Source: an uncultured Ignavibacteria bacterium
GTDB lineage: Bacteria > Bacteroidota > Ignavibacteria > Kapaibacteriales > Kapaibacteriaceae
Assembly: GCA_903939735.1 (NCBI GenBank)
Contig: CAJAIA010000028.1
Span: 48,978-112,977 of the forward strand
DNA length: 64,000 bases
Direction of reading: 5' to 3'
Positions 3,337 to 51,171 of this stretch are shown in pieces (within the stretch, counting starts at the first letter, position 1; each line of letters opens with the position of its first letter). The translations under genes were made by a program, and so were the position numbers. The notes below the pieces were generated by a model. It was not told where the DNA came from. It saw nothing but the letters and a program-made list of their open reading frames with translations, and ran no database searches.

Positions 3337-3362
3337 CTTCTCCCGTACACGTGAATCATTCC

Positions 3363-3400
3363 GAAGCCGTCGTGACCAGTCATGACGGCTTCTGTATTTT
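3363..3400 (+). terminator. Rho-independent terminator after the S1-domain gene
   Basis: GAAGCCGTC-gtgaccagtcat-GACGGCTTC stem-loop followed by TGTATTTTT. Confidence 0.6.
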
Positions 3401-3410
3401 TCGGTCACCC

Positions 3411-29867: not shown

Positions 29868-30293
29868 ATGATTCGCCGCCTAGCCATCCTCGCTGTCCTT
29901 GTGTGCACCACGGTCGTCGCCTACGGCGTCCAGGTGACCTTGCAGTACTTTAATGCGAAGTCGAATGGCACCTCAATCTCGCTTGAATGGAAGTCGACAG
30001 CAGAGTCAAACCTGGTGCAATACGAGATTGAACGTGCAGGCGAAGACAATCAGTTCCGGTACGTCGCAACACTCCAAGCTCGCGGTAGCAATACGGTGTA
30101 CTCCTATCGTGACGACGAAGCATTCGGCAAGGGCGATGGCAACGACGGTTCAGTTGCACGCAACTACTTCACCTACCGCCTGAAGATGGTCACACCTGAC
30201 CGCTCGGCTTCGTACTCGAACTCCATTGGCGTTACCCATAACGTTAGCGGCATCAAGCGTACGTGGGGCATGATCAAGGAAATGTTCCGATAA
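29868..30293 (+). CDS. secreted hypothetical protein (fibronectin-III-like beta-sandwich?)
   Basis: Signal peptide MIRRLAILAVLVCTTVVAYG; ISLEWKSTAESNLVQYEIER is fn3-like; 141 aa. Confidence 0.5.
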   Translation: MIRRLAILAVLVCTTVVAYGVQVTLQYFNAKSNGTSISLEWKSTAESNLVQYEIERAGEDNQFRYVATLQARGSNTVYSYRDDEAFGKGDGNDGSVARNYFTYRLKMVTPDRSASYSNSIGVTHNVSGIKRTWGMIKEMFR

Positions 30294-30303
30294 GGAACGT
30301 CCT

Positions 30304-31929
30304 GTGACCGACTACGACCTCAGACAAATCTGTTCGCGAAGCGGAGCAATCCTCTTCGCGATTCTTGTTTTTCACCAGGCATGTGTTGGTCAGGACATCG
30401 ACCACCGCTGTGGCTATTCAGATCGCTCAAGCACCGAACTACGCTCGAAGATCTCCGAGGGTGTGCAGCAGTTGCGGCCATCACTCCCCCGCTATGCCGA
30501 CGATGAGCAGGGTCGGTTCCGCGTACATTACACGATTGATGGCCCCGATGCCGTCCCAGTGCTCGATAACAACCTCGACGGCGTGCCAGACTACGTTGAG
30601 GCGTGCCTGGCGGCACTTGATCACGCGTGGCGCGTCGAAGTGGACACGCTCGGGTATCTACCCCCACCGAGCGACATGGGTGTCGGTGGAAGCAACGCAC
30701 TGGATGTCTATGTCCGCGATCTCTCGAAGGCTGGCCCTGGCGGCTCGAGTTACTACGGCCTAACCTCTCTGGATGTACGGCTACAGTCGACCCCCATCGA
30801 GACGTACACCACATGGCTTGAAGTAGATAACGACTTTTCTATGTCGGATCGGGACGCGAGTGGCAATGCATCATTTGCCACCTTTGGTGAAGACGCACTT
30901 CGCGTGACATGTGCGCACGAGTTCCACCACACGATTCAGAGTGGTCGCTACGGCGTGGCTGGTATGAACCGCAGCCTCTATGAGTTAACGTCCACATGGA
31001 TGGAGATTCGATGCTGGCCTAACATTCGCGACTGGGCGGCCTACACGACACGACTGCTTCTGACTCCAGAAGCGTGGCCATTTTCGAGCGAGTCTGCAAA
31101 CACAGGCTATGTCTGGGGTTGGTTTGGCAACGCTCTCTCGGCGGCCCATCCCAACATCCTTCGTACGATGTGGGAGCTGATTGCAACGGACATGCGTACG
31201 ACGGCAGCCCTGGTGGAAGCATGCAAGAGGCACAACGCAACATTGAGTGGCATCTTCTGTTCTTCGCTGCAGTGGCTCTATCGCACGGGATCGCGTGGAG
31301 CAGGCAACCCGTTGTTGCCTGCTGCAGAACTCCTGCCGGAGATTCGGTTCTTCTCGGATCAACCCGTCGTGGCTCCGACCGCAACGGAGATCGGACGACT
31401 TCTCGGATTCGAGGTACGGGCATTCCGCTTCTCTGTGCCGTCGTCCTCGTCACGTCCGCCTGTGAGCGTCGGCGTGGTCGTTTGCGATGCTGACGAAGTT
31501 GGATATGCCAATCAAGGGTCTGGACCTGATGGACGATATCGCATCGAACTCACGAATGCTCCGAGTGGCTCCGATATGCGCATCGACGGAACGCAATGGG
31601 GACTCCGTGTGGAGTCAGCGTACTGCTCGCATGTCGAGGGGGCACAGACGATTTCGCTGAGCGGACCCTATCCACAGCCGCTTTCATTGCAGCGCACGCG
31701 ACGCGTGTACATACCAGTAACGAACGAGCCGATTGGTACGCGCATCACACTTTCGCTGCTAACGCTCAGTGGCGCAGCGCTGCGTTCGTCGAACACGACA
31801 GTGATACTCGATGATGATCGCATCGTTGCAACCTTTGACCTCGAGGGCGAACTCCCTCCCGGCACGTATCTTGTCCGCAGTGAGTCGTCCACTTCGACCA
31901 CGCTTCACAAGGTGATTCTTCAACGATGA
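30304..31929 (+). CDS. secreted HExxH protein (putative zinc metallopeptidase)
   Basis: Signal peptide; CAHEFHHTIQSG contains HExxH; 541 aa; ATGA overlap with the downstream ABC ATPase. Confidence 0.55.
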   Translation: MTDYDLRQICSRSGAILFAILVFHQACVGQDIDHRCGYSDRSSTELRSKISEGVQQLRPSLPRYADDEQGRFRVHYTIDGPDAVPVLDNNLDGVPDYVEACLAALDHAWRVEVDTLGYLPPPSDMGVGGSNALDVYVRDLSKAGPGGSSYYGLTSLDVRLQSTPIETYTTWLEVDNDFSMSDRDASGNASFATFGEDALRVTCAHEFHHTIQSGRYGVAGMNRSLYELTSTWMEIRCWPNIRDWAAYTTRLLLTPEAWPFSSESANTGYVWGWFGNALSAAHPNILRTMWELIATDMRTTAALVEACKRHNATLSGIFCSSLQWLYRTGSRGAGNPLLPAAELLPEIRFFSDQPVVAPTATEIGRLLGFEVRAFRFSVPSSSSRPPVSVGVVVCDADEVGYANQGSGPDGRYRIELTNAPSGSDMRIDGTQWGLRVESAYCSHVEGAQTISLSGPYPQPLSLQRTRRVYIPVTNEPIGTRITLSLLTLSGAALRSSNTTVILDDDRIVATFDLEGELPPGTYLVRSESSTSTTLHKVILQR

Positions 31930-32546
31930 TGACGCTTGAACTCTCGTCTATCGCGAAAACCTACAACGGACGTCGTGTGCTGCACGACGTAAGCTTCTCG
32001 GCATCACCGGGTGATGTCGTAGGCATACTCGGTGCAAACGGAAGTGGAAAGTCCACACTCGTCAAGGTGATCGCAGGTGTTATCCGAGCCGACAGCGGAA
32101 CAGTTACATGCATACACGATGGCCGGGAACTTGACGCTCAAGCGCGACGCGCATCGTGTGGCTTTGTAGCGCCCTACTTGGCACTCTATGAAGAGTTCAC
32201 TCCGCATGAGCACCTGCAACTCCATGCGAACCTCCACGGCGCACCATGCACACCGGAGCACATTGCAGCCACATTGGCGTTGGTGCAGATCGACCATCGT
32301 GCACATGATCGCATCCATACCTTCTCCAGTGGCATGAAACAACGCGTTGCGTTGGCCTGCGCTGTGTTCCTTACACCACCTCTCTTACTCCTTGACGAAC
32401 CTGGCTCGACACTCGATGCCGCTGGTCGCGATGTTTGCGAAGCAATCGTGCGTGACCAAACACGTCGCGGTGGAATCACAATCTTGGCTACAAACGACGA
32501 TCGCGAGGCTCATCTATGTTCACGCACCTATCGCATTACCTCCTAG
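31926..32546 (+). CDS. ABC transporter ATP-binding protein (CcmA-like, orphan, no adjacent permease)
   Basis: Walker A GANGSGKST, signature FSSGMKQRVAL, Walker B LLLLDEPGSTLD; 206 aa. Confidence 0.85.
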   Translation: MMTLELSSIAKTYNGRRVLHDVSFSASPGDVVGILGANGSGKSTLVKVIAGVIRADSGTVTCIHDGRELDAQARRASCGFVAPYLALYEEFTPHEHLQLHANLHGAPCTPEHIAATLALVQIDHRAHDRIHTFSSGMKQRVALACAVFLTPPLLLLDEPGSTLDAAGRDVCEAIVRDQTRRGGITILATNDDREAHLCSRTYRITS

Positions 32547-33424
32547 CGGCAACAACCGCACTCGTACTTATTGGCGGCACAGGTTGCACCGATAGCGCAC
32601 GCGGAGATTCTACGAAAACATCAACACCCGAACCGCTGCCGATCAGCACGTGGAAACTTCCATCGACGCTAACCTTCTGCGGTGAGGCAGTTCCGCTAGA
32701 CATCCCTGAAGTCCGAGAACGCGCGGAGCGCGAATTCTATCTCAACCTCCAGACACCTGGCCAACTCATTCTCTACATCAAGCGCTCGGCGCGGTACTTT
32801 CCCGTCTTCGAGCGCGAGCTCACGTCTGCGGGCGCTCCCGAGGATCTGAAGTATCTCAGCGTTGCCGAAAGCGCGTTGTTCATGGCTCGATCCGCCAAAG
32901 ATGCTGTTGGCCTATGGCAGTTCATACCATCGACAGGTAGAGCACACGGCTTGGTGATCAACGACGATGTTGATGAGCGCCGCAATGTTGTGAAAAGCAC
33001 GCGAGCCGCTATTGCCTATCTCACGGCTGGCCGCACCGCAAACGGTTCCTGGGCCAACGCTGCAGCTGGATACAACATGGGGCACGAAAGTTTCCGCGGG
33101 TCAAGGGACTATCAGAAGGCCAAGGACTTCTATGAGCTCTACCTCAATGAGGAGACATCGCGATATCTATTGCGCATTGCAGTGATCAAACACATCATGG
33201 AACATGCAACCGAGTACGGCATCGTGATCCCCGAGCGTGATCGATATCAGGCGAGTGCGACACGCTCCATAACCGTACGCGAGGCGATCAGCGACATAGC
33301 AACATGGGCTCGGCAAAACAACAGCACCTATAAGGATGTCAAGTTGTTGAATCCATGGATTCTCGGGCGTAGCCTTCCAAACCCAACTGGTAGCAGCGGC
33401 TGGTCGATCGAGCTCCCTGCATAA
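32516..33424 (+). CDS. lytic transglycosylase (SLT domain) lipoprotein
   Basis: Lipoprotein signal ...LIGGTGC; SLT catalytic region LSVAESALFMARSAKDAVGLWQFIPSTG (ES...GLMQ-type). Confidence 0.85.
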   Translation: MFTHLSHYLLAATTALVLIGGTGCTDSARGDSTKTSTPEPLPISTWKLPSTLTFCGEAVPLDIPEVRERAEREFYLNLQTPGQLILYIKRSARYFPVFERELTSAGAPEDLKYLSVAESALFMARSAKDAVGLWQFIPSTGRAHGLVINDDVDERRNVVKSTRAAIAYLTAGRTANGSWANAAAGYNMGHESFRGSRDYQKAKDFYELYLNEETSRYLLRIAVIKHIMEHATEYGIVIPERDRYQASATRSITVREAISDIATWARQNNSTYKDVKLLNPWILGRSLPNPTGSSGWSIELPA

Positions 33425-33430
33425 AACGAG

Positions 33431-33462
33431 CACGGGCCGAGTGCGTCTGCACTCGGCCCGTG
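33431..33462. terminator. bidirectional stem-loop terminator between convergent genes
   Basis: 14-bp perfect stem CACGGGCCGAGTGC-gtct-GCACTCGGCCCGTG; T-tract (CTCGTTTT) on the minus-strand reading. Confidence 0.6.
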
Positions 33463-33491
33463 GTAAAATTCGGTGTTAATCCGTAGGCTTC

Positions 33492-34295
33492 TTACTTCGC
33501 CTTCGGCTGTGTGCCTTGGAAGACTGGGCTTTGCGATTCCATCACGAAACCATAGGCCTTGAGGTCGAGCTCTGGATTCTCAGGATGCGTTGTCTTGACC
33601 TTCACACCACCTGAGTAGTTGCCCTTCGCTGCTGGAACGACCTTGACGACGACAGCAAGCTTTTCGCCTGGCTTCAGCGCAACACGTGATGCTTGATTAC
33701 ATACGAGTCCGCCATCAGTTGTCCAGTCAGAGAAGATGATCTCTTGATCCGAGTTGTTCGTGAGCTCCATCTTCGATGTTGCTTCTTGACCAAGCTTCAA
33801 ATCAGAGAATGAGAAGTACATCGATGGCGAGTACATGATCGCACGCTGCACATCGCACTTGAGCCAGATGTAACCAGCGCGGACAGCTGTATCTGCTCCA
33901 GTTGGCAATGGTGTGTTACTCGTCTTGTAGGCCTTGTAGGCATCGTTGCCCTCAAGATCTGCCCATGAGATGTTGATGTTCTTTGTCATCGGGCCAACAT
34001 TCGACGGGCTGATATTCAGCTTGACCTTCATCGTGCTGACCTCGCCTGGCTTGAGATCTGTCTTGTCTGGATCTGTCTTTGTGCAGCCACAGCCCGGACG
34101 GACTTCAGTGATGCGAAGCGGACGATCACCGACGTTCTTCATCTTGATCTCTGCTTCGAGGTGGCCTTCCTTCGGTGGCTTGACCTTACCCCAATCGTAG
34201 GTTTCCCCGCCAACAACTTCGAGTTTCGCTTGTGCCGACACAGCAACAGCGCTGAGCGCAAGTGCAGCAATTGCACAAAGTAGGTGCTTGAACAT
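33492..34295 (-). CDS. DUF1573 domain-containing secreted protein
   Basis: Signal peptide; RITEVRPGCGCTKTDPDK with the conserved CGCT motif of DUF1573; RBS AAGGAG; TATATTTG -7 box upstream. Confidence 0.78.
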   Translation of the reverse strand: MFKHLLCAIAALALSAVAVSAQAKLEVVGGETYDWGKVKPPKEGHLEAEIKMKNVGDRPLRITEVRPGCGCTKTDPDKTDLKPGEVSTMKVKLNISPSNVGPMTKNINISWADLEGNDAYKAYKTSNTPLPTGADTAVRAGYIWLKCDVQRAIMYSPSMYFSFSDLKLGQEATSKMELTNNSDQEIIFSDWTTDGGLVCNQASRVALKPGEKLAVVVKVVPAAKGNYSGGVKVKTTHPENPELDLKAYGFVMESQSPVFQGTQPKAK

Positions 34296-34350
34296 CGGTT
34301 CGTACTCCTTTGAAAAAATAACTGGTCGTAAAGTGCCTACGACGCAGGTG

Positions 34351-34358
34351 CAAATATA
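34351..34358 (-). promoter_or_regulatory. Bacteroidota-type -7 promoter element TATATTTG (TAnnTTTG) for the DUF1573 gene
   Basis: Exact TAnnTTTG match ~55 nt upstream of the start codon; a GTCGTA...TACGAC hairpin plus T-run lies between it and the RBS and may also terminate the upstream gene. Confidence 0.4.
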
Positions 34359-34370
34359 CTATTGCGCGGC

Positions 34371-35138
34371 TTAGAGCCCCTTGAGAAGACGCATTCGAAG
34401 TCCAATCGCCCGCATGAACCAGTCGTCATTGGTCAACAGGCTACCAAGGGGCATTCCGAAACCAATCGACGGCTGGATGACCATGCCATAGGCTAGGGCG
34501 ATATCATACCCTATCTGCACAAATGGCTCGACGACAATGGGTGTCGTGTGGTCGAGGAAGGTCTGAGCAATCACGACTTCTCTCCCAGGGTTCTGTCCGC
34601 TGAACTCAGCACCTGTGGGTTCAACGATGCGTTCGCGTTGCGTGAGGGCGCCCCCTATCGATGCGTGGACTCGAGCTCCGATTGTCGCTAGGAGGTTCGT
34701 TGGTCCGAGCCGCATACTTACGGATCCGAAGCCTGTTGCATATGTCAGCGATCCGTCGAGGACGTACTCAGTCTGCAGGATCTGTCCATTACTGAGGGGC
34801 ACTGGCTGTGTTGGGGCAACGAACGATGCGTGAAACACGGAAACTCCGAGGCCAGCTGAGAGGTTGATCCTTGAGCTTAGCCACTGCGTGCCGACCAGCG
34901 AGAGGGACATCGGAAGTCCCGAACCGTTGTCGAAGGTGCAGCACGTAATGCCAATCGACTCCTCGATATAGTCAAAGCTCGCAGGATAGACGGCATACGA
35001 CAGTCCAGCTTCGAGACCGAGATACGTGCGTGGAATCTCATGGGGGGCTCGTGGTGATGCCTCCCACGTATATCCTTGCGCAGCGGCGTCACACACAATC
35101 GCAAGAAGCGCTACTACGATGAACACACAGTGCTTCAT
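34371..35138 (-). CDS. outer-membrane beta-barrel protein, PorP/SprF-like partner (putative)
   Basis: Signal peptide MKHCVFIVVALLAIVCDAAAQ; alternating amphipathic strands; C-terminus ...DDWFMRAIGLRMRLLKGL is paralogous to the protein at 40534-41343; start overlaps the upstream stop (ATGA). Confidence 0.6.
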   Translation of the reverse strand: MKHCVFIVVALLAIVCDAAAQGYTWEASPRAPHEIPRTYLGLEAGLSYAVYPASFDYIEESIGITCCTFDNGSGLPMSLSLVGTQWLSSRINLSAGLGVSVFHASFVAPTQPVPLSNGQILQTEYVLDGSLTYATGFGSVSMRLGPTNLLATIGARVHASIGGALTQRERIVEPTGAEFSGQNPGREVVIAQTFLDHTTPIVVEPFVQIGYDIALAYGMVIQPSIGFGMPLGSLLTNDDWFMRAIGLRMRLLKGL

Positions 35139-37423
35139 CTGCCCACCACAAAGGGTACGACAATGTAGCGTTGCGACGACCACACAATAACAGAATAGGC
35201 TGCAGGTGGCAGGCTTTCCACGCCGATATCTACGGCATACGATCCCGGAGCTAGATTATCATCAACAATCACCATGCGCTCGCGACCAAACGCATCAACA
35301 CATACGGCTCGCACACGTTCGTGGCGAGGCACAAGCACGGTAAGCGTCCCACGATCAACAACGGGATTCGGGAACACACCGGCCATTGCCTGATTCCGCA
35401 TGATCGCTGTTTTATACGTGAGGCCACACAGCGAGTCAATACGGAACACACCCGACGCGGAGCGCACCGGAACAAGATCCGGACAATCGACGGTGCCAAA
35501 GGTTGTGGACAGCGAGGAAATCCCCAACGGCGAGTCAAGGCTTGCACCAAGCATCGCGCTAAAGACAAGTCGCGTAAACACTGGTCGTGCCTCGAATTGA
35601 TCAGGCGCAGTCCATGCCAAGCGCAAGCTATGTCCGTCTGAAGAGAGTCGTTCTGGCGCTCCGGCAATCTCCGTTGCTGTGCCAAGTGAGATCGCGCGTT
35701 CAAATCGAAGGACGGTTGTATCAACATCGATCGCAAGCGTACAGCGCTCGAAGGAACCAACAAGGGCGGGAGACACCGCGACATCAACCACAACATTGTC
35801 AAAGCCAGGTCGCGCCGCAATTGTGTCAGGCATACGCACGAGCATGGTGTCGCGCATGCGAAGCGCAGTTGCCTGAAATGGGACTCCGACGATGTTCTGT
35901 TGAAGCGCATTCGATACGATGTCGAGCGTGTCGAAGATGCTACCCTCCGATGTCGGACGATAGTCGAGCGTAACGAACGCTGACTGCTGCGGAGCTATCG
36001 TCAGAGCTTGCGGCGAGGCCGTCACAGCAAGCGATCCAGATCGCGAACGAATTGCCGTGATACGCAAATCGAGATCGCCTGTATTCGTGACACGCATACT
36101 GTCGCGCGTTGTCGACGTACATACCGGAGAGTAGGCAATTGTATCGAAGATGATTTCGGCCGGTTCAACAGTGATGCGGGCTCGACGTTGACGTCCGATC
36201 ATCACGAACGACATTACCTCTGCGCCAAACGGCACAGCTTTAATTGTCCCTCGCGAGAGAATATCGGTCGTGATGGCATAGCGCATTGCCGACTCCCCTG
36301 CTGCTGTCGGCGCATAGGTTACGACAATCGTATCACGAGCGCCTCGACGAAGTATCTGAGAGCCTTCTGCTACTGCGCGTCGAATCTGGAATGACGCTGT
36401 ATCAGAGGCGACCCCGCCGGGAAGTATCCGCTTCTGCTCGAGGAGAACGACGGGATCAAGATTGCCGACGTTCTCAACAATGATCATTGCCCGCACGGTG
36501 TCCTGCGCCGAGCCAACGGTTCCAAAATCAACAGTGTCGCCTGACCATCGCAAGCCAGAGGTCGCTTGCTCCGATTGTACATCAACGATGCGTAACCGCT
36601 GCTCTACACCGACACCGGAGATCTTGGTGTCGAGCGTAACCGGACCCGACGTTGTATCGAGTCGGTACTGCAGCGTGAACACCGCACTATCGTACCCAAG
36701 ATTGCGCGGCTGATAGTAGACGTCCCAAAACGCAGAGTCGAGACCACCAACAATGACGCTCGGCTTCACATCAACAGTAATCTCTGGGTCGCCAACAACT
36801 GTCGTCTTGATCTCGAGCGTTTGCTTCTCGATCGCAACACTTTCTGTTTGAAGGTTGCGCACACGGAATGTCTCTTGCAACCGCCTGTTAAGGTTCACAT
36901 AGACGGAATCGAATCGTATGATGGGCGTACCAGTAACCAAGTACTGGGTCGTACGCCGACCTCGCAGCCGAAACTGACGCTCTGCGAACGGCCCTGTTGG
37001 CTCGAATGATCGCACCACACGAATCCGCATCTGCGCTTCAACGGCACTGTCTAGTGTAATGGAAGGCTCAGCTCGTGCGAGATAGCGTAGGTCGACTCGT
37101 GCGACCTGCCCAGGAGCGACGACGATCGGGAATGTATTATCGACAACGAAGTTCTGATACCGTGGATCGTCACTCGGGATCCATGGAAGATTCGAGAACT
37201 CAACAAACGGAATATCATTTGTCAGGACGACAGCGGTATCTGTACCAAGATTGCGAATCGCGAGCGCGCGGCGCGTGTGATTCCCAACGAAGGTCACACC
37301 AAAATCAACAACAGAATCGGCGGCAGGACGCTCAGCAATGGTGATTTCCACTACTGGCTGTGCAAGCACTGGCATGCAAGCACATGCGACAAGAAGGACC
37401 AGCGTGGTGAAGCGGAACTTCAT
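35135..37423 (-). CDS. large secreted protein with T9SS-type C-terminal sorting domain
   Basis: Signal peptide MKFRFTTLVLLVACACMPVLAQ; 762 aa beta-rich; C-terminus ...GVFPNPVVDRGTLTVLVPRHERVRAVCVDAFGRERMVIVDDNLAPGSYAVDIGVESLPPAAYSVIVWS is CTD-like. Confidence 0.6.
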   Translation of the reverse strand: MKFRFTTLVLLVACACMPVLAQPVVEITIAERPAADSVVDFGVTFVGNHTRRALAIRNLGTDTAVVLTNDIPFVEFSNLPWIPSDDPRYQNFVVDNTFPIVVAPGQVARVDLRYLARAEPSITLDSAVEAQMRIRVVRSFEPTGPFAERQFRLRGRRTTQYLVTGTPIIRFDSVYVNLNRRLQETFRVRNLQTESVAIEKQTLEIKTTVVGDPEITVDVKPSVIVGGLDSAFWDVYYQPRNLGYDSAVFTLQYRLDTTSGPVTLDTKISGVGVEQRLRIVDVQSEQATSGLRWSGDTVDFGTVGSAQDTVRAMIIVENVGNLDPVVLLEQKRILPGGVASDTASFQIRRAVAEGSQILRRGARDTIVVTYAPTAAGESAMRYAITTDILSRGTIKAVPFGAEVMSFVMIGRQRRARITVEPAEIIFDTIAYSPVCTSTTRDSMRVTNTGDLDLRITAIRSRSGSLAVTASPQALTIAPQQSAFVTLDYRPTSEGSIFDTLDIVSNALQQNIVGVPFQATALRMRDTMLVRMPDTIAARPGFDNVVVDVAVSPALVGSFERCTLAIDVDTTVLRFERAISLGTATEIAGAPERLSSDGHSLRLAWTAPDQFEARPVFTRLVFSAMLGASLDSPLGISSLSTTFGTVDCPDLVPVRSASGVFRIDSLCGLTYKTAIMRNQAMAGVFPNPVVDRGTLTVLVPRHERVRAVCVDAFGRERMVIVDDNLAPGSYAVDIGVESLPPAAYSVIVWSSQRYIVVPFVVGR

Positions 37424-37439: not shown

Positions 37440-38873
37440 TTACCACCACGAACGGAACGTGGAGAGGAACGGCGATGCTACCAATCCGAGAATGATGCTT
37501 ACAGCAGTTGTCACGACAAGCGTGATTCCTGCCAGACCAGACGTGGCTGGCTCGCGCTCACCTGATGGCTCGGTGAAGTACATCTTGACGATCAGCCCGA
37601 GGTAGAAGTATGCACTAATGACCGACGACGCGACAGCGACAAACGTAAGCCATGTGTATCCTGTTTCAACTGCCGATACAAACAGGAGATACTTCCCAAA
37701 GAAACCAGCGAACGGCGGAATACCAGCGAGCGAAAGCATGAAAACAGCCATCGAGAATGCCAGCATTGGCTCACGCTTTGCGAGTCCGGCGTAGTCGTTG
37801 ATCTCCAACAGGGAGTCATTGCCGCGCTCAAGAATACCTACGATAACGAAGGCTCCGAGCTGCATAAACACGTACGACGTTACGTAGAATACGATGCCGC
37901 TATATCCATCGGCAGTATTCGATACGATGCCCATGAGCAAGTAACCTGCGTGCGCGATCGACGAGTATGCAAGCATGCGCTTGATGTTCGTCTGTACAAC
38001 GGCCGTGATATTGCCCACCAACATCGTGATTGCCGACACAACGGCAAGCATGAGTTGAAGCTTCGGTGTCAACGTGGACGTTCCAGGCATGAGCATGATA
38101 AACAACGCGATGAACGCGCTGAAGGCAGCTGCCTTACCTGCCGTGCTCATAAAGGCCGTCACGACCGTCGGCGAACCTTCGTAGACGTCAGGTGCCCATT
38201 GATGGAATGGGAACGCTGCAACCTTAAATGACATCGCAACTGCCATCAACACAGCGCCAATAGCGAAGAGCGTTGGGAAGTTTGTTGCGTTCTGCGCTAC
38301 CACACCACGAATGACATCGTACTGCAGCGAACCCGTCGCACCGTAGATCAGGGACATACCGTAGACGAGGAATCCCGATGCAAATGCACCGAGGAGGAAG
38401 TACTTCAAGGATGCTTCAACACTGCGAATATTCGAGCGCAGGAAGCCGGCCATCACATAGAATGTGATCGACATCAATTCGATACCAACAAACAGCACGA
38501 GGAGGTTGTTGGCATGTGCCATAAGCATCATTCCCGCCGTGGCGGAGACCAACAACGTATAGAACTCATCGAGCTCTGCACCCTCACGCTGGAGGTACGG
38601 GCGTGCAGCAAGCATCGTGAGGATCCCAGATGCGCAGAACAGAACGTCGAAGTAGTTCGCGACTCCTCCGAGCGTAATCATGTCCTGGAACGTCGTGCCC
38701 TTGTGGCCAGATGTTAGAACGGCCAGGGCTGCCGTGAGCAACAGTGTGCCCAGGTAGTACCCGAAGACCAGTCGCGTGTTGTTGCGTACGAAGGCCTGGA
38801 TCGTGATACCAATCGCACCGAGTCCGAGCCAGATTGCGATGAGAGGGAGCGAGCCAAAGTAGTCGATGTGCAT
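37440..38873 (-). CDS. nuoN: NADH-quinone oxidoreductase subunit N
   Basis: 477 aa, 14-TM antiporter-like subunit; typical NuoN N-terminus and conserved helices. Confidence 0.85.
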   Translation of the reverse strand: MHIDYFGSLPLIAIWLGLGAIGITIQAFVRNNTRLVFGYYLGTLLLTAALAVLTSGHKGTTFQDMITLGGVANYFDVLFCASGILTMLAARPYLQREGAELDEFYTLLVSATAGMMLMAHANNLLVLFVGIELMSITFYVMAGFLRSNIRSVEASLKYFLLGAFASGFLVYGMSLIYGATGSLQYDVIRGVVAQNATNFPTLFAIGAVLMAVAMSFKVAAFPFHQWAPDVYEGSPTVVTAFMSTAGKAAAFSAFIALFIMLMPGTSTLTPKLQLMLAVVSAITMLVGNITAVVQTNIKRMLAYSSIAHAGYLLMGIVSNTADGYSGIVFYVTSYVFMQLGAFVIVGILERGNDSLLEINDYAGLAKREPMLAFSMAVFMLSLAGIPPFAGFFGKYLLFVSAVETGYTWLTFVAVASSVISAYFYLGLIVKMYFTEPSGEREPATSGLAGITLVVTTAVSIILGLVASPFLSTFRSWW

Positions 38874-38897: not shown

Positions 38898-40448
38898 TTA
38901 GCGTTGTTGCTGTGGAAGAGGCAGTACCGAAGAGACCTTGCCAGTATACGTGCCGACGCGTTCAACAACGGCCTTCACGCTTGATTCTGAGAAGTGCATG
39001 AAGTGGCGAGGAGCCACACCAATCCAGATGATGAACACAGCAAGTGGCACAAGCTGCCAATACTCGCTCGCTGTGAGGTCACGGAGATGCTTATTCTCTG
39101 GGTTGTCGTTTGTTCCGAACATTACGCGCTGGAACATCCACAGCAGATACACCGCTGCGAAGATCACACCGCTTGCGCTCACAATGGCATACATCGGGTT
39201 ATTGAGCACTGGGCTCGTATATGCGCCGAGCAGCGTGAGGAATTCACCGACGAATCCGTTGAGACCTGGAAGGCCTACCGATGCGAACATGGCAAGTGCG
39301 AAGAGCACGGCGAAGCGTGGCATAACGCTTGTGATTCCACCATAATCGGCGATTTCACGTGTGTGGCGGCGCTCATACAATGCACCAACGCACAAGAACA
39401 GCATGCCGGTCGAAAGGCCGTGATTAACCATCTGAATAACGGCACCTTGGATACCTTCGGTTGTCATCGAGAAGATGCCCAAAACAACGAAGCCCAAGTG
39501 GCTCACCGATGAATACGCAACGAGCTTCTTGATGTCGGTCTGGACCATGGCGACAAGCGCGCCATAAATGATACCGACTACGGCCAGTACCGAAATCGGC
39601 GTTGCGAATTCAACCGATGCCACTGGGAAGAGGTCGAGATTGAAACGAATCAGACCGTACGTTCCGAGCTTGAGGAGTACGCCCGCAAGGATAACGGATC
39701 CCGCTGTAGGCGCCTGCACGTGTGCATCGGGCAGCCATGTGTGCAATGGGAACAGTGGCACCTTGATCAGGAAGGACAGCGCGAAGGCCAGGAACAGCCA
39801 TGTCTGCACCTGAGGAGCAATCATTGGTGCGTGCTGACGGAGAACCGCGAGGTTGGCTGTAAAGCCATTGCCAGTCATCGCGCCTACCTCAAGGCCGAGC
39901 CAAATGATGGCAATCAGCATGAGCAGCGAGCCGACGAGCGTATACAGGAAGAACTTAATGGCTGCGTAGATACGATCCTTGCCGCCCCATATACCGATGA
40001 TGAAGTACATCGGGATGAGGATGAGTTCCCAGAACACGTAGAACAGGAATGTGTCCGTTGCCATGAAGACGCCGGTCATACCAAACTGCAGAAGCAGCAT
40101 AAGTACGTTGTATTCCTTGACGCTCTTCGTGACCGAGTTCCAGGATGTCAGGAACGCGATCGGCATGATCAGTGTCGTGAGCAGAACCAGGAGCAATGAC
40201 GTACCGTCGATACCCAGACGAAGTCCGGCATCGATAGACGTCAACCACGGCATATCAACGGTGAACTGCATTGCCGACGAACTAGCGTCGAATCCCGGGA
40301 CGAGGAGTGTCGACCCAAGGAATGTCAGCACCGAGAAGACCAAGGCGGTTGTCTTGATCGCCTTTCCTTGATCCCGATGGATAAAGAGCAGTGCCAACGA
40401 CCCCGCAAGGGGTGCAAATAATGTAGCGAGCAACGCGGCTGTGCCCAT
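38898..40448 (-). CDS. nuoM: NADH-quinone oxidoreductase subunit M
   Basis: 516 aa antiporter-like subunit; NuoM-type motifs (WLPDAH..P). Confidence 0.85.
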   Translation of the reverse strand: MGTAALLATLFAPLAGSLALLFIHRDQGKAIKTTALVFSVLTFLGSTLLVPGFDASSSAMQFTVDMPWLTSIDAGLRLGIDGTSLLLVLLTTLIMPIAFLTSWNSVTKSVKEYNVLMLLLQFGMTGVFMATDTFLFYVFWELILIPMYFIIGIWGGKDRIYAAIKFFLYTLVGSLLMLIAIIWLGLEVGAMTGNGFTANLAVLRQHAPMIAPQVQTWLFLAFALSFLIKVPLFPLHTWLPDAHVQAPTAGSVILAGVLLKLGTYGLIRFNLDLFPVASVEFATPISVLAVVGIIYGALVAMVQTDIKKLVAYSSVSHLGFVVLGIFSMTTEGIQGAVIQMVNHGLSTGMLFLCVGALYERRHTREIADYGGITSVMPRFAVLFALAMFASVGLPGLNGFVGEFLTLLGAYTSPVLNNPMYAIVSASGVIFAAVYLLWMFQRVMFGTNDNPENKHLRDLTASEYWQLVPLAVFIIWIGVAPRHFMHFSESSVKAVVERVGTYTGKVSSVLPLPQQQR

Positions 40449-40533: not shown

Positions 40534-41343
40534 TCAGAGTCCGGCCCGCCACATTACACCGACACGAAGTGCTACGGCGTTCCAATCGGTTGGATCTCTG
40601 GTAATCGGGGTAGCCGCATGAACCATCACATACGGGGTAACGAGCTGTCCGGTATATCCAAACAAACCAGCCATGATATTGACCGCGCATCCGAGTTGGA
40701 AGCCGATGCGGGTGTCCGTCGTAATCGTCGGACTGAACTGGATGCTGGTTTGTGGAAACCCTGGTTCATCGCTGACAGTCATTGTGTCGGCCAATTCTTC
40801 CTGTTGCCATACACTGGCACTCACGGAAACCGGAACGTCCAGTGTTGGTCCTGCCATAATCACTACGCCCTGGGTTCCGACGTACCACGTGGCCATGGCT
40901 GACGCGATAACGGAGAATCTGCTCACAGTTGTCGTGAATGTGGCGTTGTACGAATAGGGTTGTTGGCTAACAGGTTGCGTTGAGGTGCTCTGCAATCTCT
41001 GAACGTCGACGCCGACCATACAGATTGCACCAAAGGAAGATCGATACGGACGATACTCAATCGTCGGAGCGATCATCATGCTGGCTCCCCAACCACCTTC
41101 CGTGCGTGCGTGTGCCGAAGGGAGTTCTGGCACCGGCGACGTGATATACGTAAGGTCCAGCGTCCCGAATGCCTGATGCAGTCCGCCAGCAAGAGAGCCC
41201 CCTACCCACCACTGCTCGCGCATGAGCAGGCCTTCACGGGGCGTCTCGAGATCTTCGGCCGCCGACCCAGGAATGAGCTGCGCATAAACATGGCCTCCGA
41301 GAAGGAGTGCAAGCGCAACGAGGATGATGCGAGCGTTGGTCAT
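40534..41343 (-). CDS. outer-membrane beta-barrel protein, PorP/SprF-like (putative), last gene of the 9-gene operon
   Basis: Signal peptide MTNARIILVALALLLGGHVYAQ; beta-strand periodicity; C-terminus ...TDWNAVALRVGVMWRAGL is paralogous to 34371-35138; ATGA overlap with the upstream gene. Confidence 0.6.
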   Translation of the reverse strand: MTNARIILVALALLLGGHVYAQLIPGSAAEDLETPREGLLMREQWWVGGSLAGGLHQAFGTLDLTYITSPVPELPSAHARTEGGWGASMMIAPTIEYRPYRSSFGAICMVGVDVQRLQSTSTQPVSQQPYSYNATFTTTVSRFSVIASAMATWYVGTQGVVIMAGPTLDVPVSVSASVWQQEELADTMTVSDEPGFPQTSIQFSPTITTDTRIGFQLGCAVNIMAGLFGYTGQLVTPYVMVHAATPITRDPTDWNAVALRVGVMWRAGL

Positions 41344-42677
41344 CGCAGAATCTGCCCCTTGAGAATAACCCGAGATTGTTCAAGACCACTCTTCTCATCA
41401 ACTGGGACACCAACAAGGACGATGTTGACCAACCCTTGCGCTGCAATGGAGGATGCATCAAGTCGCGCTCGGTATCGCTGACCGCGCTCGTAGACGACGT
41501 TACGGATTGGATTACCATCGGGATCAACCAGAGTCGCGATCCTACGTCCACCAACATCGTATGCTTCAGCCGTCAGCACAAGACGATCATCAATATTGAA
41601 CTGGACTGTTGTTGTCGATGCGAAGGGATTCTCGAGCAGCACTGCATTGGAAATGATCGGCGTACCGATTCGAATGACAACTGTGTCGATAGCTATGGTG
41701 TCACCACCGTACTCCGGACGGCGCAGACCCATGAGTCGGTAGGCATATTGCTCACGGCGGTACTCAACGGGGTCGAGATATCCATCGCGCGTCTGTGGCG
41801 CAAGACACTGACACGACAGCAATGATGCATCTTGCGCATAGGAGAGTAAGGGGCGCGCAGCGAACGCATAGACAGTTGGATCGCGACGGTCGACGAGTGC
41901 CCGCTCGAACCAGTAACCATAATAACAATGCTCGTCGGTGACGTCGAAACCGAGCCGCACTTGAAGGTTGCCAGCATATTCTCCACGAAGCGTGAATTGC
42001 GCAGTACAGGAATCGCGAGGTGGATCGGATGTCGTGAACACCACGTACGATCCCATAGGCACGTTGTCGTGACGCAGATACCATACGTGCGATCCAATCG
42101 CTGTTGTCGTAACGCTATCCGACGAACGCTTGTACGAGAGTGCGAGCAGCCGCGTGTCGGTCGCGTAAGCGAGCGTATCAGATATCTGTGAGCCATCGCG
42201 CGTCGCAAGTCGAAACCTTCCGATACACAACGAGTCTCCTATGGACATCAAACGGATGCATTGATCTACGGAATCTGGGCATATCATCATCACCGACGCA
42301 TAGCCATCAATGATGTCTGTTTGTATGTGATACGCGGTGCGACCGCTTTGTTGGTACGGACCCAACGGAGCGAGCTGCGATGTTCCCGGCTCGTAGGTAA
42401 ATGTGTGTCGGCTTGAATCGAGCCCGTTTGCATTCTGCATTGTAGGCACGCCGATACGAAGAGTGGCTGTCGCAACATGCTGCCACGCAGACGATCGCTT
42501 CATTATCCAGAACTCTACGAGTGCGGATTCCGGACGCGGATCAAGGACAGTTCGCAGAACAACACTGGCAAGCGTGTCTTGCTGTGCATGTGCCGACGAC
42601 AGCACAGCCATCACAAGCGCAATGATGCAAACGACATGCTTCGCAAAGTGTTTACCGAGGTATCGCACTGTTGTCAC
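41340..42677 (-). CDS. secreted protein with T9SS-type C-terminal sorting domain (operon gene H)
   Basis: GTG start; signal peptide; C-terminal ~90 aa LENPFASTTTVQFNIDDRLVLTAEAYDVGGRRIATLVD...LDASSIAAQGLVNIVLVG...VILKG fits the Por_Secre_tail pattern. Confidence 0.6.
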   Translation of the reverse strand: MTTVRYLGKHFAKHVVCIIALVMAVLSSAHAQQDTLASVVLRTVLDPRPESALVEFWIMKRSSAWQHVATATLRIGVPTMQNANGLDSSRHTFTYEPGTSQLAPLGPYQQSGRTAYHIQTDIIDGYASVMMICPDSVDQCIRLMSIGDSLCIGRFRLATRDGSQISDTLAYATDTRLLALSYKRSSDSVTTTAIGSHVWYLRHDNVPMGSYVVFTTSDPPRDSCTAQFTLRGEYAGNLQVRLGFDVTDEHCYYGYWFERALVDRRDPTVYAFAARPLLSYAQDASLLSCQCLAPQTRDGYLDPVEYRREQYAYRLMGLRRPEYGGDTIAIDTVVIRIGTPIISNAVLLENPFASTTTVQFNIDDRLVLTAEAYDVGGRRIATLVDPDGNPIRNVVYERGQRYRARLDASSIAAQGLVNIVLVGVPVDEKSGLEQSRVILKGQILR

Positions 42678-44769
42678 GCCCCCGGTTGTTCCATGATGTA
42701 TCCCAGTCGAGCGTTGTCACTACTCCATCAAGATTTGTATCGAAGATGGAGTAACGCTGCACGACCCCACGACTTGTCCAAATACCAAGCATGTCATCGT
42801 TGGTGATCACTTCGGCGCGTCCGAGAACTGCAAGCCCTCCGTCCGTATTACCCGCCGTCATTCCGAAGTAACGACGATTACCATACGCCGATATCAACCG
42901 CTGCGTTGATGCTCCTCCGAAGAGTCCGCTACCATTCGTGAAGTCGATGTACGCTTGTGCGTTTGAGCGATCAACGAGCACAGGATCGGCTGTCGCAATC
43001 GAGAGGTGATTGCGGTGACGCACCACCAAATGATAGAGACCCGGCTGGATACTATCGATTGTCTTTTCCCGCAAGGTGCGCGGATCAAGCAGTGCACCCT
43101 GAGCGCTGAGGATCAATGTCTCGATATGCTCTGGCACTCCCGACGAGGTGAGATCTCGACGGAACTCAAGTGTCACCCAGTCGACGAGTGAATCGGCAAG
43201 CACAGCTACCGTATCACCTTTCGGCTCGAGATCAGCGAGGTATGGATAGATCCGCGGTGGAGTTTGCGGTAGCAAGCCACGCTGCACAAGTTCTGTTGAC
43301 ATCAAGGGCACTGCTGCATCCCCGATCGAACGCACTGCCCCCTCCAAGATGACACGTCCACGTAGCGCCCATACCGGACTCGCAGACATCCCAAACGCAT
43401 ATGATCCACCAGCACGAATGAACTGCGTCGAGCTGTATCTCCAGAGTGGCGATGACTCTATGCTGGAAAGCGTCGGCAGTTGAGAGAACCCATACTGTTG
43501 ATACAACGATCCGTCATACCGCAACAGCACGAGTTGTGATTCCTTTCCAATCAACTGCTGCGTGGTCTCAGGAGCCTTGGCACCCTCGATTGTCGGATCG
43601 TAGTTAATGCGCCATCCCCACCCCATCGTCATATCGAACGAGCTATCAGGGACGTTGCGACTGGCACTATCGAGGAACGACAACTCTAGCGATCGATCAA
43701 CTTTATAGAGGATGTCGCTGATCGGCAGCGGACGTGTTAATGGTTTACTGCGAATGCGAATCTGCTGCACGGCACCTTGTTGTTGCGGCGACGAAAACTG
43801 CACCCATGCATAGGCGTGATTCATGAGCATGCGCGGACCGTTGAGGAGTGCGGTGCGTTGCATCGTACCATCAACCTCTGCCCACGTGTTGACGAACGTG
43901 GGATCCCGTGGAGTATTCAGATAGACAGCATGTCTCAGAGTATCAAGCTCTTCGGTATAGAGCGTACCAGCCAGTGAGAGATGTCCGTTCACCCATGCAT
44001 CTCGCGACAGCGTTACACCTGCAAGAACATCCTGACGCACCGAGTCTAGCGTCGCGCGCGCCAAGGGCACCTCTGGTCCGGCAAGAATGGCTGAATCGCC
44101 ATACCACCGAAGATTTATCAATCCGCGAGCCCGGACGTCTGCCTGCAACGAGGCCTCTGCTCTGCGCCAGAGCCATGCAGCCGAATCAAGATTGATGTTG
44201 TCGGTTGCGGTGTTCTCCACACGTCCGCGCTGGAGATCCAGTCGATGTGTAACGCGCAACGCACTCAAATCGTACAGACGCACCGCATCCGCATTGGCGA
44301 TTTCGAGCACAGGCGTGCTTCCATTACCCGTTGCGGGCTGACGGACAACACCTGCAAGACGAAGTGTTCCCTGCCAGCTCAACGGATTGATATGCCCCCG
44401 GTGATTGACACTGTCAAGCGCTTCGATGAACGTCGCAGGTGTAAGATCAACCGTCACGAGTGAATCCGTTGTCAGGAACATCTGCGTCGTTCGAACGGGC
44501 CGCAGTCCATCAATGAGCATCTTTCGTGATTGTCCGCTCAGCAAGAGATGCTGATACGTGGTGTGCGCCACGAACTGACTATCAGCACGGTCCCTTCGAT
44601 ACTCAACCTGTCCGCCGATGGCTGCTTGATCGATACGAGCATTACCATGGACGGTGATAACACCTTCATTGGTGATCGTTCCCTCGCTTCGCAGATGCTG
44701 AACTGGCTGCGCGTGCATCTTTGCAACCGCGCACATCATGAGCAGCAGGAGGATGACGTTACTCCTCAT
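42652..44769 (-). CDS. large secreted hypothetical protein (operon gene G)
   Basis: Signal peptide MRSNVILLLLMMCAVAKMHAQ; 705 aa; ATGA overlap with gene F. Confidence 0.6.
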   Translation of the reverse strand: MRSNVILLLLMMCAVAKMHAQPVQHLRSEGTITNEGVITVHGNARIDQAAIGGQVEYRRDRADSQFVAHTTYQHLLLSGQSRKMLIDGLRPVRTTQMFLTTDSLVTVDLTPATFIEALDSVNHRGHINPLSWQGTLRLAGVVRQPATGNGSTPVLEIANADAVRLYDLSALRVTHRLDLQRGRVENTATDNINLDSAAWLWRRAEASLQADVRARGLINLRWYGDSAILAGPEVPLARATLDSVRQDVLAGVTLSRDAWVNGHLSLAGTLYTEELDTLRHAVYLNTPRDPTFVNTWAEVDGTMQRTALLNGPRMLMNHAYAWVQFSSPQQQGAVQQIRIRSKPLTRPLPISDILYKVDRSLELSFLDSASRNVPDSSFDMTMGWGWRINYDPTIEGAKAPETTQQLIGKESQLVLLRYDGSLYQQYGFSQLPTLSSIESSPLWRYSSTQFIRAGGSYAFGMSASPVWALRGRVILEGAVRSIGDAAVPLMSTELVQRGLLPQTPPRIYPYLADLEPKGDTVAVLADSLVDWVTLEFRRDLTSSGVPEHIETLILSAQGALLDPRTLREKTIDSIQPGLYHLVVRHRNHLSIATADPVLVDRSNAQAYIDFTNGSGLFGGASTQRLISAYGNRRYFGMTAGNTDGGLAVLGRAEVITNDDMLGIWTSRGVVQRYSIFDTNLDGVVTTLDWDTSWNNRGRDNSAIPR

Positions 44770-46832: not shown

Positions 46833-47221
46833 GGACGTCCAATAATGATCTCGCCTTCGTTATTCAACTCACCGTCGTTGCGTATCACCCCATACACGTG
46901 CAGCACGCCTGGAGCATATCGCCAACAGATGCCGAAGCGATCAATAACAAGATTGCGCTCGATAACTACTTCGGACAGACGCTCCATGTACAGACCACCA
47001 AGCAAGACGCGCATCGTACCTGTGCAACGTAGCGTCGCTGTATCATACAACCGGATGTCGCCATCACTGCTTACGACGTCGCCGTCGATAACCATCGAAG
47101 CGCCTTCCTTGACATGAATCATTGCACCTGAGTTCGTAACAAGCTGAGCACTGGACGTCGAGGAGCCGAGGAGGGAACACAGCACCACAAAGAGTATCGA
47201 TATGAGTATGCGGTAGCGCAT
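46829..47221 (-). CDS. small secreted hypothetical protein (operon gene E)
   Basis: Internal Met MRYRILISILFVVLCSLLGSSTSSAQ whose ATG shares one nucleotide with gene D's TGA stop; 130 aa. Confidence 0.55.
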   Translation of the reverse strand: MRYRILISILFVVLCSLLGSSTSSAQLVTNSGAMIHVKEGASMVIDGDVVSSDGDIRLYDTATLRCTGTMRVLLGGLYMERLSEVVIERNLVIDRFGICWRYAPGVLHVYGVIRNDGELNNEGEIIIGRP

Positions 47222-49440: not shown

Positions 49441-50198
49441 CAGTTCGTCATCCTTGATGCTTTGACATACGATCCTTGGAGTATCCGTATGGTGCCGCTT
49501 GACGTGACACCACCCCGCAGTTGAAGTGTCGACGTCGACGCACTCACAACGACGATTCCCTTGACGAGCAGCGCATTATCACGCGTTGCATCTGACGATT
49601 GCACTGGAAGGTCGATCACCGTGCCCGTGGTTGTCGTTACCCAATTCGGCGATAGACCTATTCCATCTGCGCCAACAACCGTCCACCGCAAGAGTGTTGG
49701 TGCTGGAGTAACGGCCACGGAGAGCTTAAGACTCGCATCAGTCGATGTACCATCGTACGCGATAAGTGCTTCGAACTCATACACCTTTGCTGCAACGAGT
49801 CCCGCGGCGCCCAAAAGTGTGAGATCAGTCATCGTGGTTGATGTAAGTGACTGATCGGCTGTCGTATAGGAGAACAGTGCTGCCGCAGCTGCCGCCTCTG
49901 GAGTCCACTCGAGCGTAGCCGATGTAGCTGTCGGCGCAGGCGAAGTGGCAATGCGCAACACCGCACCTGGAATGATAGGGATCGTCGACGGGAGTGTATA
50001 GGTGCGTGTCGCTGCGAGTCCAAGCGGTGCGAGGAATTCGACCGCATTTGCATTGTCGCTCATCAGGCGCAACAACCTTGTACGCACAGGGAGCTGCCCA
50101 CGCATGTCAGTAGCACCGACAAGCGCAAGGCACAGCACGGCCACGCATGCACTCAGCACGCGGCCTAGCGATCGAATATGGGAGGCACAACGTCGCAC
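49440..50198 (-). CDS. secreted hypothetical protein, paralogue family (operon gene C)
   Basis: Signal peptide then GQLPVRTRLLRLMSD motif shared with gene B; Thr/Ala-rich. Confidence 0.55.
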   Translation of the reverse strand: MRRCASHIRSLGRVLSACVAVLCLALVGATDMRGQLPVRTRLLRLMSDNANAVEFLAPLGLAATRTYTLPSTIPIIPGAVLRIATSPAPTATSATLEWTPEAAAAAALFSYTTADQSLTSTTMTDLTLLGAAGLVAAKVYEFEALIAYDGTSTDASLKLSVAVTPAPTLLRWTVVGADGIGLSPNWVTTTTGTVIDLPVQSSDATRDNALLVKGIVVVSASTSTLQLRGGVTSSGTIRILQGSYVKASRMTN

Positions 50199-50263
50199 GG
50201 TATTACGCGCTGCCGTGTGAACACATGCAGCGGTAAGCCTCTAGCAACTGAGATGTAAATCCG

Positions 50264-51130: not shown

Positions 51131-51171
51131 TATACCACTCCAAGTGAAATGAGGGAAAGAGAGATTGTTCA

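Follow-up and report, generated by a model that had tools for sequence, protein, structure and literature searches.

A 64,000-nucleotide stretch of contig CAJAIA010000028.1 from an uncultured Ignavibacteria bacterium (hereafter the window) encodes two gene pairs in which a secreted protein is followed, across an ATGA stop/start overlap, by a small outer-membrane beta-barrel. The two barrels are remote paralogues from a large, unnamed family, and each has kept its own upstream partner in every related locus examined. Judged by its orthologues, the longer of the two upstream proteins carries a diverged type A sorting domain, the C-terminal domain (CTD) that marks type IX secretion system (T9SS) cargo. 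On the reading favoured here, to which we assign a probability of roughly 45%, the pairs are cognate small-barrel anchors for T9SS cargo, working much as SprF and PorQ do while belonging to neither family. The elements of the two pairs are as follows:

35135-37423, (-) strand: open reading frame (ORF) of a 762-amino-acid (aa) secreted protein rich in immunoglobulin-like (Ig) domains, the putative cargo of module 1
34371-35138, (-) strand: ORF, from the ATG at 35138, of a 255-aa outer-membrane beta-barrel, barrel 1 (AlphaFold2 model)
35135-35138, (-) strand: ATGA in which the stop of the 762-aa gene overlaps the start of barrel 1, read from the sequence
35138-35383, (-) strand: putative diverged T9SS type A sorting domain of ~80 aa at the C-terminus of the 762-aa protein (PNP, DxFG and G/AxY motifs)
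41340-42677, (-) strand: ORF of a 445-aa secreted protein, the putative cargo of module 2
40534-41343, (-) strand: ORF of a 269-aa outer-membrane beta-barrel, barrel 2 (AlphaFold2 model)
41340-41343, (-) strand: ATGA in which the stop of the 445-aa gene overlaps the start of barrel 2, read from the sequence

The first junction reads ...gggcagATGAagcac, the TGA stop overlapping the ATG start, and the second reads ...ctgcgATGAccaac; both ORF pairs and both overlaps are thus just as an earlier note on this DNA had described them. The genes nuoM and nuoN separate module 2 from module 1 and lie 16 bp upstream of the 762-aa gene. With the exception of NuoM and NuoN, all the minus-strand proteins listed here and below between 33492 and 52014 have signal peptides with a Gln after the cleavage site, the exposed residue of the Bacteroidota 'Q-rule' (PMC5837995). 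Cleavage leaves mature barrels of about 235-247 aa.

The pairing has been retained over considerable evolutionary distance. Related loci (given L numbers here) come from metagenome-assembled genomes labelled Candidatus Kapaibacterium, 'Melioribacter' or 'Bacteroidetes bacterium', Kapaibacterium being placed in Bacteroidota, and the closest relative of the window is L003 (CAMCXP010000054.1), at about 85-99% protein identity. An orthologue of the 762-aa protein is encoded directly upstream of barrel 1 in 15 of 15 distinct loci examined. These include close relatives (L001, L003, L004, L005 and L006), more distant relatives with the same synteny (L007, L008, L016, L017 and L018) and a further group in which barrel identity has fallen to about 22-25% (L010, L011 and L012, which are short contigs with upstream proteins truncated by the contig, as well as L013, L014 and L015). 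The pair has entirely different neighbours in L013 and L014 and the same neighbours in a rearranged order in L015. A hidden Markov model (HMM) of the 762-aa protein recognizes upstream proteins from this last group with E-values of 1e-80 in L013, 2e-52 in L011 and about 1e-19 in L012 and L010 (the weakest being 8e-19). Across the 15 loci the two genes overlap by at most 11 bp or lie at most 11 bp apart; in 10 of the loci they overlap by 4 bp (L006 is unclear). Pair 1 is an autonomous two-gene module. In L006 (7432-9950) the 762-aa orthologue is split into overlapping 391- and 451-aa ORFs beside an intact barrel, the product of either a frameshift, a pseudogene or an assembly error. Barrel 2, for its part, always follows an orthologue of the 445-aa gene, in 8 of 8 loci, with a 4-bp overlap in L003, L006, L007, L008/L009, L016, L017 and L018. 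Because the adjacency recurs in every related locus examined, the cargo-barrel arrangement is not a matter of chance.

The downstream proteins had been called beta-barrels from sequence alone, and both structure prediction and fold comparison bear this out. AlphaFold2 models computed from family alignments are all-beta barrels, with a predicted local distance difference test score (pLDDT) of 71.2 and a predicted template-modelling score (pTM) of 0.63 for barrel 1, and 78.4 and 0.69 for barrel 2. When both models were compared with the PDB using Foldseek, they matched exclusively outer-membrane barrels, with template-modelling (TM) scores of up to about 0.44 normalized on the query and up to 0.58 on the target. 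They include OmpA-long, OmpX, NspA, Ail, OmpT/Pla, OpcA and the Legionella Dot/Icm porins; the best of the matches are barrels of 8-10 strands, and no T9SS protein was found among the PDB matches of either model. DSSP assigns 9-10 strand elements of up to 25 residues. If the periplasmic turns are taken to be short and the outer loops longer, both proteins fit one layout of probably ~8 long strands, a strand count deduced from the DSSP strings of the models and not from coordinates.

Neither barrel matches any Pfam or NCBIfam family at E<=1. An exhaustive HMMER search with barrel 1 nonetheless gathers 237 clusters into one family at E<=1e-3. Almost all of them are 240-265 aa long and matched from end to end, and every database name for the family is 'hypothetical protein'. 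An alignment of 123 members (A5) shows conserved motifs at the mature N-terminus (QGFDWQYSxRxP) and further along the chain (CCxFxxGxG, EYW, GYD and W...GL). When these members were scanned against family models at E<=1, 34 of the 123 matched OMP_b-brl_2 (PF13568; best E 2.3e-8) and 25 the TDE1717 barrel model (NF049866); single members matched PorV_fam (E 0.014) and PorT_SprT (E 0.16), in each case weakly. The L008 orthologue has a precomputed OMP_b-brl_2 match graded 'weak', while the window barrels have no PF13568 match. From these profile matches, the family looks like a distant branch of the OMP_b-brl_2 clan; a sequence search of the PDB with the 123-member profile returned nothing. The earlier note had proposed that the barrels are PorP/SprF-like, and this part of it fails. 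At E<=1, PF11751 and TIGR03519 match neither window barrel and none of the 123 family members, and the PorP-type N-terminal motif is absent from the barrel alignments. FadL appears among the low-ranking fold matches with TM scores of 0.15-0.23 and low probability; PorP-like proteins are 14-stranded FadL-type barrels (PMC9143113), against the ~8 strands predicted here.

When conservation is mapped onto the inferred barrel topology, it is highest in the N-terminal extension (2.76 bits per column). A conserved extracellular face was sought on the same topology, and no clear difference between inside and outside emerged. One cysteine, C66, is near-invariant (98% of the 123 members), forms a CC pair with C67 in two thirds of them and sits near the predicted outer tip of strand 2.

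That the two barrels are related is visible solely with a deep profile. BLASTP found nothing between them, and hhalign with shallow profiles built from close relatives (A1 vs A2) gave probabilities of 0.8-6%; the small excess of the shallow profiles over shuffles was due to the signal peptides and vanished on mature sequences, which scored no higher than block shuffles. With the 123-member profile, in contrast, hhalign aligned 209-221 collinear columns of the mature regions of the two families, at a probability of 96-97% and E-values of 4e-9 and 5e-10. The score was 62.7; sixty block shuffles gave 15.6±2.0 and reached 21.3 at most, and the reversed alignment scored 19.2. The A5 HMM also directly matches the barrel-2 members P0023 (2e-10) and P0022 (3e-6). 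Because the deep-profile score lies so far above the shuffle null, barrels 1 and 2 are remote paralogues. The earlier note had asserted as much from short motifs, and those motifs ('GLSYA/GGLHQA' and the C-terminal 'DW...GL') do fall in register in the deep-profile alignment.

The upstream proteins differ in how clearly they can be recognized as T9SS cargo. The 762-aa protein, which begins with Q after signal-peptide cleavage, contains, at aa 417-510, an Ig domain of the choice-of-anchor D / HYDIN-ASH / DUF1573 type (NF012200, 64.9 bits; PF22544, 49.7 bits), and in the family alignment its tail is preceded by a conserved C...DSLCGLxYK element. Tails were judged against the curated cutoffs of 27 bits for PF18962 (Por_Secre_tail) and 23 bits for TIGR04183. 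Those of the distant orthologues in L007 (31.9 and 28.6 bits, respectively) and L008 (31.6 and 33.4 bits) exceed both cutoffs, and Por_Secre_tail is precomputed at E<=1e-5 in the orthologues from L014, L015, L017 and L018. Close relatives match the same model at the same place below threshold (E 0.045-0.29). Since the collinear tails of distant orthologues pass the cutoffs and the motifs align, the 762-aa protein can be assigned, by sequence, a diverged type A CTD. The case for the 445-aa protein is less complete: the window copy has no type A CTD match at E<=10 in its tail and no family match, while the L008 orthologue reaches E 0.0044 with TIGR04183 (17 bits vs the cutoff of 23, model positions 4-52) and the L007 orthologue E 0.063. 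Compared directly with the CTD of the 762-aa family, the 445-aa tail gave an hhalign probability of 63% (E 7e-5) over 45 columns. The earlier designation of both proteins as CTD-bearing cargo therefore stands for the 762-aa family, in which L007 and L008 pass the cutoffs, and is weak for the 445-aa tail, which covers half of the model below threshold.

Several further searches concern these tails and the proteins bearing them. The two cargos were considered as paralogues and rejected as such: BLASTP found nothing between them, and hhalign of the 445- against the 762-aa family gave 7%, any relationship being undetectable outside the tail. A PDB sequence search with the two proteins returned nothing, type B CTD models had no match at E<=10 in any C-terminal 100 aa examined, and hhalign of the CTD regions against the tail of a neighbouring HExxH protease was uninformative (4-32%). 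The 762-aa orthologue of L014 has a weak Cohesin match. Since a 292-aa Ig-domain protein elsewhere in the window (62932-63810, (-) strand) passes TIGR04183 with 30.1 bits against the cutoff of 23, this genome evidently uses T9SS tails, as far as profile matches can tell. Two plus-strand proteins are also likely T9SS cargo: the first (3351-4181) is 276 aa long and ends in a FlgD_ig-like tail, and the second (4181-7057) is an S8 subtilase of 958 aa whose tail is weak (E 9e-4).

The 762-aa family has three invariant cysteines, C435, C647 and C666, two of which lie 19 residues apart. The third is in the DUF1573-type domain, and domains of this type typically carry Cys. A disulfide between cargo and barrel, linking one of these residues to C66, is conceivable and is offered only as a thought.

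Cargo and barrel also evolve at a similar, unusually high rate. Among close relatives, identity to the window is 92-97% for nuoM/nuoN and 89-99% for the DUF1573 protein encoded directly downstream of barrel 1; the corresponding ranges are 68-85% for the 762-aa protein, and 57-90% for barrel 1. Barrel 2 has 63-91% identity among close relatives. The 445-aa protein is about 74% identical in L006, the sole close relative with a full-length copy (that of L003 is truncated by the contig). Between the window and L001, divergence amounts to 8% for nuoN and 11% for the DUF1573 protein, compared to 32% for the 762-aa protein and 39% for barrel 1, so that cargo and barrel diverge 4-6 times faster than their neighbours. 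Over six non-independent pairs of close relatives, cargo and barrel distances correlate with r=0.95, whereas the correlations of cargo and barrel with nuoN are 0.88 and 0.84 and those with the DUF1573 protein 0.72 and 0.60. Such fast parallel divergence fits two surface-exposed, co-adapting proteins and is no proof of contact.

The genes around the two pairs, which help in weighing what the barrels do, are as follows:

47221-52014, (-) strand: four fibre-like secreted proteins
46829-47251, (-) strand: 140-aa ORF with signal peptide
44766-46832, (-) strand: 688-aa protein with signal peptide
42652-44769, (-) strand: 705-aa protein with signal peptide
38898-40448, (-) strand: nuoM (TIGR01972, 609 bits)
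37440-38873, (-) strand: nuoN (TIGR01770, 431 bits)
33492-34295, (-) strand: 267-aa secreted protein with two DUF1573/ASH-type Ig domains (PF07610, 86 bits)
33431-33462, (-) strand: strong intrinsic-terminator-like hairpin with a 14-bp stem, 11 G-C pairs and a T-rich tail

Module 2 forms the end of a conserved cassette of at least six genes, many of them joined by 4-bp overlaps, in which fibre-like Phage_depo_C proteins are followed by a ~130-aa, a ~690-aa, a ~700-aa and a ~433-aa protein and finally by barrel 2. This order is kept in L007, L008, L017 and L018, wherever the upstream sequence suffices. The picture of two paralogous cargo-barrel modules drawn in the earlier note is borne out in that both pairs exist and weakened in that module 2 is not free-standing. 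Because most genes of the window cassette overlap each other by a few bases, overlap is a feature of the operon and not special to its last pair. The 688- and 705-aa families have a homologous stretch in common (hhalign 85%), and neither these two proteins nor the 140-aa one matches a curated family. Among the fibre-like proteins, the 739-aa one matches a Phage_depo_C beta-sandwich and an antifreeze-like beta-roll, and those of 252, 309 and 280 aa have common 'QLPVRTRxLxL'-type N-termini; possibly the whole cassette is a system for surface fibres. Since L001 lacks it entirely and has pth abutting nuoM, the cassette (42652-52014) behaves as an insertable unit would. The C-terminal ~60 residues of the 705-aa protein (~42652-42800, (-) strand) include a pair of DxNxDGxVxxxD-like loops (ITNDDMLGIW...DTNLDGVVTTLDW), reminiscent of the calcium sites in dockerins or EF hands; Pfam gave no match there.

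Between the two modules, nuoM and nuoN form an isolated pair with no nuoL or nuoA-K adjoining. The order nuoM-nuoN-cargo-barrel-DUF1573 is kept in L001, L003, L005, L006, L007, L008, L016, L017 and L018. It is odd that complex I subunits should be co-transcribed with a secreted Ig protein and an outer-membrane barrel, and the pair in L013-L015 lacks nuoM/nuoN. In L007, L008, L016, L017 and L018, one or two sensor kinases of ~700 aa, combining tetratricopeptide repeats (TPR) with HisKA and HATPase domains, are encoded on the opposite strand between barrel 2 and nuoM; the window has no such kinases between cassette and nuoM.

On the other side of module 1, the 75 bp that separate barrel 1 from the DUF1573 gene (34296-34370, (-) strand) include TATATTTG, a match to the -7 promoter motif of Bacteroidota, TAnnTTTG; a weak hairpin comes after it (34343-34325). 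From its sequence, the DUF1573 gene may have its own promoter; a sigma-70 promoter scan stayed at chance level, as expected for Bacteroidota. The hairpin at 33431-33462 probably ends the minus-strand transcription unit. The conserved gene set beside module 1 (29868-34295) encodes a secreted protein of 141 aa, a HExxH metalloprotease of the MXAN_6640 family whose T9SS tail is weak, a lone ATP-binding cassette (ABC) ATPase of 206 aa that comes nearest to CcmA, DrrA and GldA, an MltD-like lytic transglycosylase and the DUF1573 protein with its two domains. In the rearranged L015 (3040-7558) this set again lies beside the pair, and it is missing from L013 and L014.

Taken together, these observations can be accommodated by a simple scheme in which each barrel serves the protein encoded immediately before it. 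The upstream protein would be exported by the Sec pathway and then cross the outer membrane through the T9SS by virtue of its C-terminal sorting domain. The translationally coupled downstream gene would meanwhile supply a cognate small barrel, probably 8-stranded, that acts as a dedicated membrane partner and receives or holds the Ig-rich protein at the cell surface. The barrel would therewith do the job of PorP/SprF for type B cargo, or of PorQ for PorZ, by means of an unrelated and much smaller family. For module 2, this reasoning would extend to the two genes that end the cassette, the fibre-like proteins and a pair of secreted proteins of ~700 aa being encoded there as well. We infer the surface location of the cargo, its physical interaction with the barrel and the anchoring role; barrels that hold a cognate T9SS cargo have precedents in SprF-SprB, PorP-PG1035 and PorQ-PorZ (PMC9143113, PMC12618676, PMC10202324).

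A number of points weigh against this scheme. The tail of the window's own 762-aa protein matches Por_Secre_tail at E 0.14 and 12.9 bits, below the cutoff of 27, and the C-terminal ~100 aa of the 445-aa protein resemble just the first half of a type A CTD (NPF...TVxFN...DxxGR). None of the T9SS core genes (sprA/sov, porK/L/M/N, porU/V) lies within the 64-kb window. The 4-bp overlap is the commonest of all operon junctions, and such overlaps also join other genes of the cassette, so that an overlap signifies 'same operon' rather than 'same complex'. By standard barrel topology, the N-terminal extension, as the most conserved part of the barrels, should face the periplasm or the lumen and not the surface. 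The close correlation between cargo and barrel distances comes from a small sample. Finally, all type A CTDs in the Bacteroidota studied so far are handled by PorV and then cleaved by PorU (PMC12618676, PMC10202324), and a type A cargo accordingly needs no private barrel.

Several of these points are shared by the most serious competing explanation, namely that the barrels are ordinary small outer-membrane proteins like those of the OmpA, OmpX or OMP_b-brl_2 type, which have a structural role, form small channels or tether the envelope, and that they are encoded in the same operon as the cargo without binding or serving it. The generic PF13568 and TDE1717 models pick up 34 and 25 of the 123 members, the fold matches are equally generic, ATGA overlaps are common within the cassette and beyond, and type A cargo would be expected to need PorV alone (PMC12618676). 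What such an explanation leaves unaccounted for is the persistence of the arrangement: mere co-transcription rarely lasts so long, yet pair 1 stays adjacent in 15 of 15 loci and pair 2 in 8 of 8, even where barrel identity is as low as about 22% and where the neighbourhood is otherwise unrelated. Nor would it predict that each of two paralogous barrels keeps its own partner family, or that both partners have an unusually high divergence rate in common. On balance, ordinary outer-membrane proteins seem to us rather unlikely, while deserving to be taken seriously.

More doubtful still is that the barrel is a dedicated, T9SS-independent pore for export or assembly of the upstream protein or of surface-fibre subunits, comparable to the amyloid transporter FapF or to an autotransporter barrel split off into a separate gene; the module-2 cassette would then assemble fibres, with the barrel as its outer-membrane component. 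FapF (5o67_B, rank 21), EstA and NalP do occur among the fold matches, although with TM scores to FapF and autotransporter barrels of just 0.22-0.25, and 4 of the 123 members match the Autotransporter model weakly. The genomic setting is agreeable to such a pore: module 2 closes a conserved cassette that encodes fibre-like Phage_depo_C proteins along with a pair of secreted proteins of ~700 aa, and the genes that adjoin module 1, still linked to it in L015, include those of a murein transglycosylase, an ABC ATPase and the DUF1573 protein with two Ig domains. However, the lumen of an 8-stranded barrel is too narrow for a polypeptide, and the bona fide T9SS tail of the 762-aa family already explains export, which makes an export pore improbable.

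Very improbable, lastly, is that the barrels are highly divergent true members of PorP/SprF (or PorV/PorQ) that collect cargo at SprA/Sov as SprF does for SprB: the barrel gene directly follows its cargo gene, as in the SprB-SprF order, one member matches PorV_fam and FadL figures among the fold matches, but no member matches a PorP/SprF model, the mature proteins are too short and have too few predicted strands (235-247 aa and ~8, against 14), FadL similarity is marginal, the PorP-type N-terminus is missing, and the cargo tail is type A with no TIGR04131-type match, whereas PorP/SprF partners serve type B CTDs and type A CTDs use PorV (PMC12618676, PMC9143113).

The cognate-anchor reading is of some consequence for T9SS biology. 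Once past the translocon, T9SS cargo can be released, linked to lipopolysaccharide or held by a barrel, and how these fates are sorted has been studied in just two model species and solely with FadL-like 14-stranded shuttles. Two paralogous pairs in one genome provide a concrete system for cargo-specific partners outside PorV/PorP/PorQ, and the analysis defines a sizeable, hitherto unnamed family of outer-membrane proteins with a fixed genomic partner. It is possible, and is suggested here with due reserve, that these ~250-aa barrels (at least 237 clusters) constitute a second, structurally different class of cognate T9SS cargo partners, each paralogue being dedicated to one CTD-bearing surface protein. 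If so, the partner concept would no longer be confined to the 14-stranded PorV/PorP/PorQ shuttles and would take in type A-like tails, and there would be a route by which type A cargo is anchored without being bound covalently to lipopolysaccharide. A barrel gene placed after its cargo gene is an arrangement already known; the literature searched describes neither this barrel family nor its size class nor its link with a type A-like tail.

Comparison with known systems shows where these pairs resemble and where they depart from precedent. The closest parallel is with the SprB-SprF pairs of Flavobacterium johnsoniae (PMC12618676, PMC9143113), in which the cargo gene likewise precedes that of its cognate barrel, several paralogous barrels are each tied to their own cargo, and the cargo is a large, repetitive surface protein exported by the T9SS. 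By contrast, the barrels described here are unrelated to SprF by curated models (0 of 123), have 235-247 mature residues and ~8 strands rather than 14, and are paired with cargo whose tail is type A-like instead of type B; the cargo families are conserved orthologues and not diverse adhesins. In Porphyromonas gingivalis, PorZ is a protein with a type A-class CTD that is held at the surface by a specific barrel, PorQ, and not released (PMC10202324), which is the behaviour proposed here for the 762-aa protein. PorQ, however, is a PorV-like 14-stranded barrel with no similarity in sequence or size to the barrels of the window, and both PorZ and PorQ are core T9SS components rather than an operon pair. 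The PG1035-PorP-PorE system of the same species (PMC9143113) adds to cargo and barrel a periplasmic or wall-linked partner encoded nearby, for which the conserved DUF1573 two-Ig protein and murein transglycosylase next to module 1 would be the counterparts. The differences are that these neighbours include no PorE-like protein (TPR, beta-propeller, OmpA_C) and are missing in L013 and L014, and that barrel family and CTD type are other than in P. gingivalis.

The remaining comparison is with the PF13568 and NF049866 barrels themselves, which are alike in size, in their predicted ~8 strands and in the weak, repeated matches of their models to family members (34 and 25 of 123). To our knowledge, no fixed upstream partner has been described for PF13568 proteins in general. 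The barrels of the window reach neither model, and the family to which they belong is set apart by its own QGFDWQYSxRxP motif, by the conserved cysteine C66 and by a fixed upstream partner gene.

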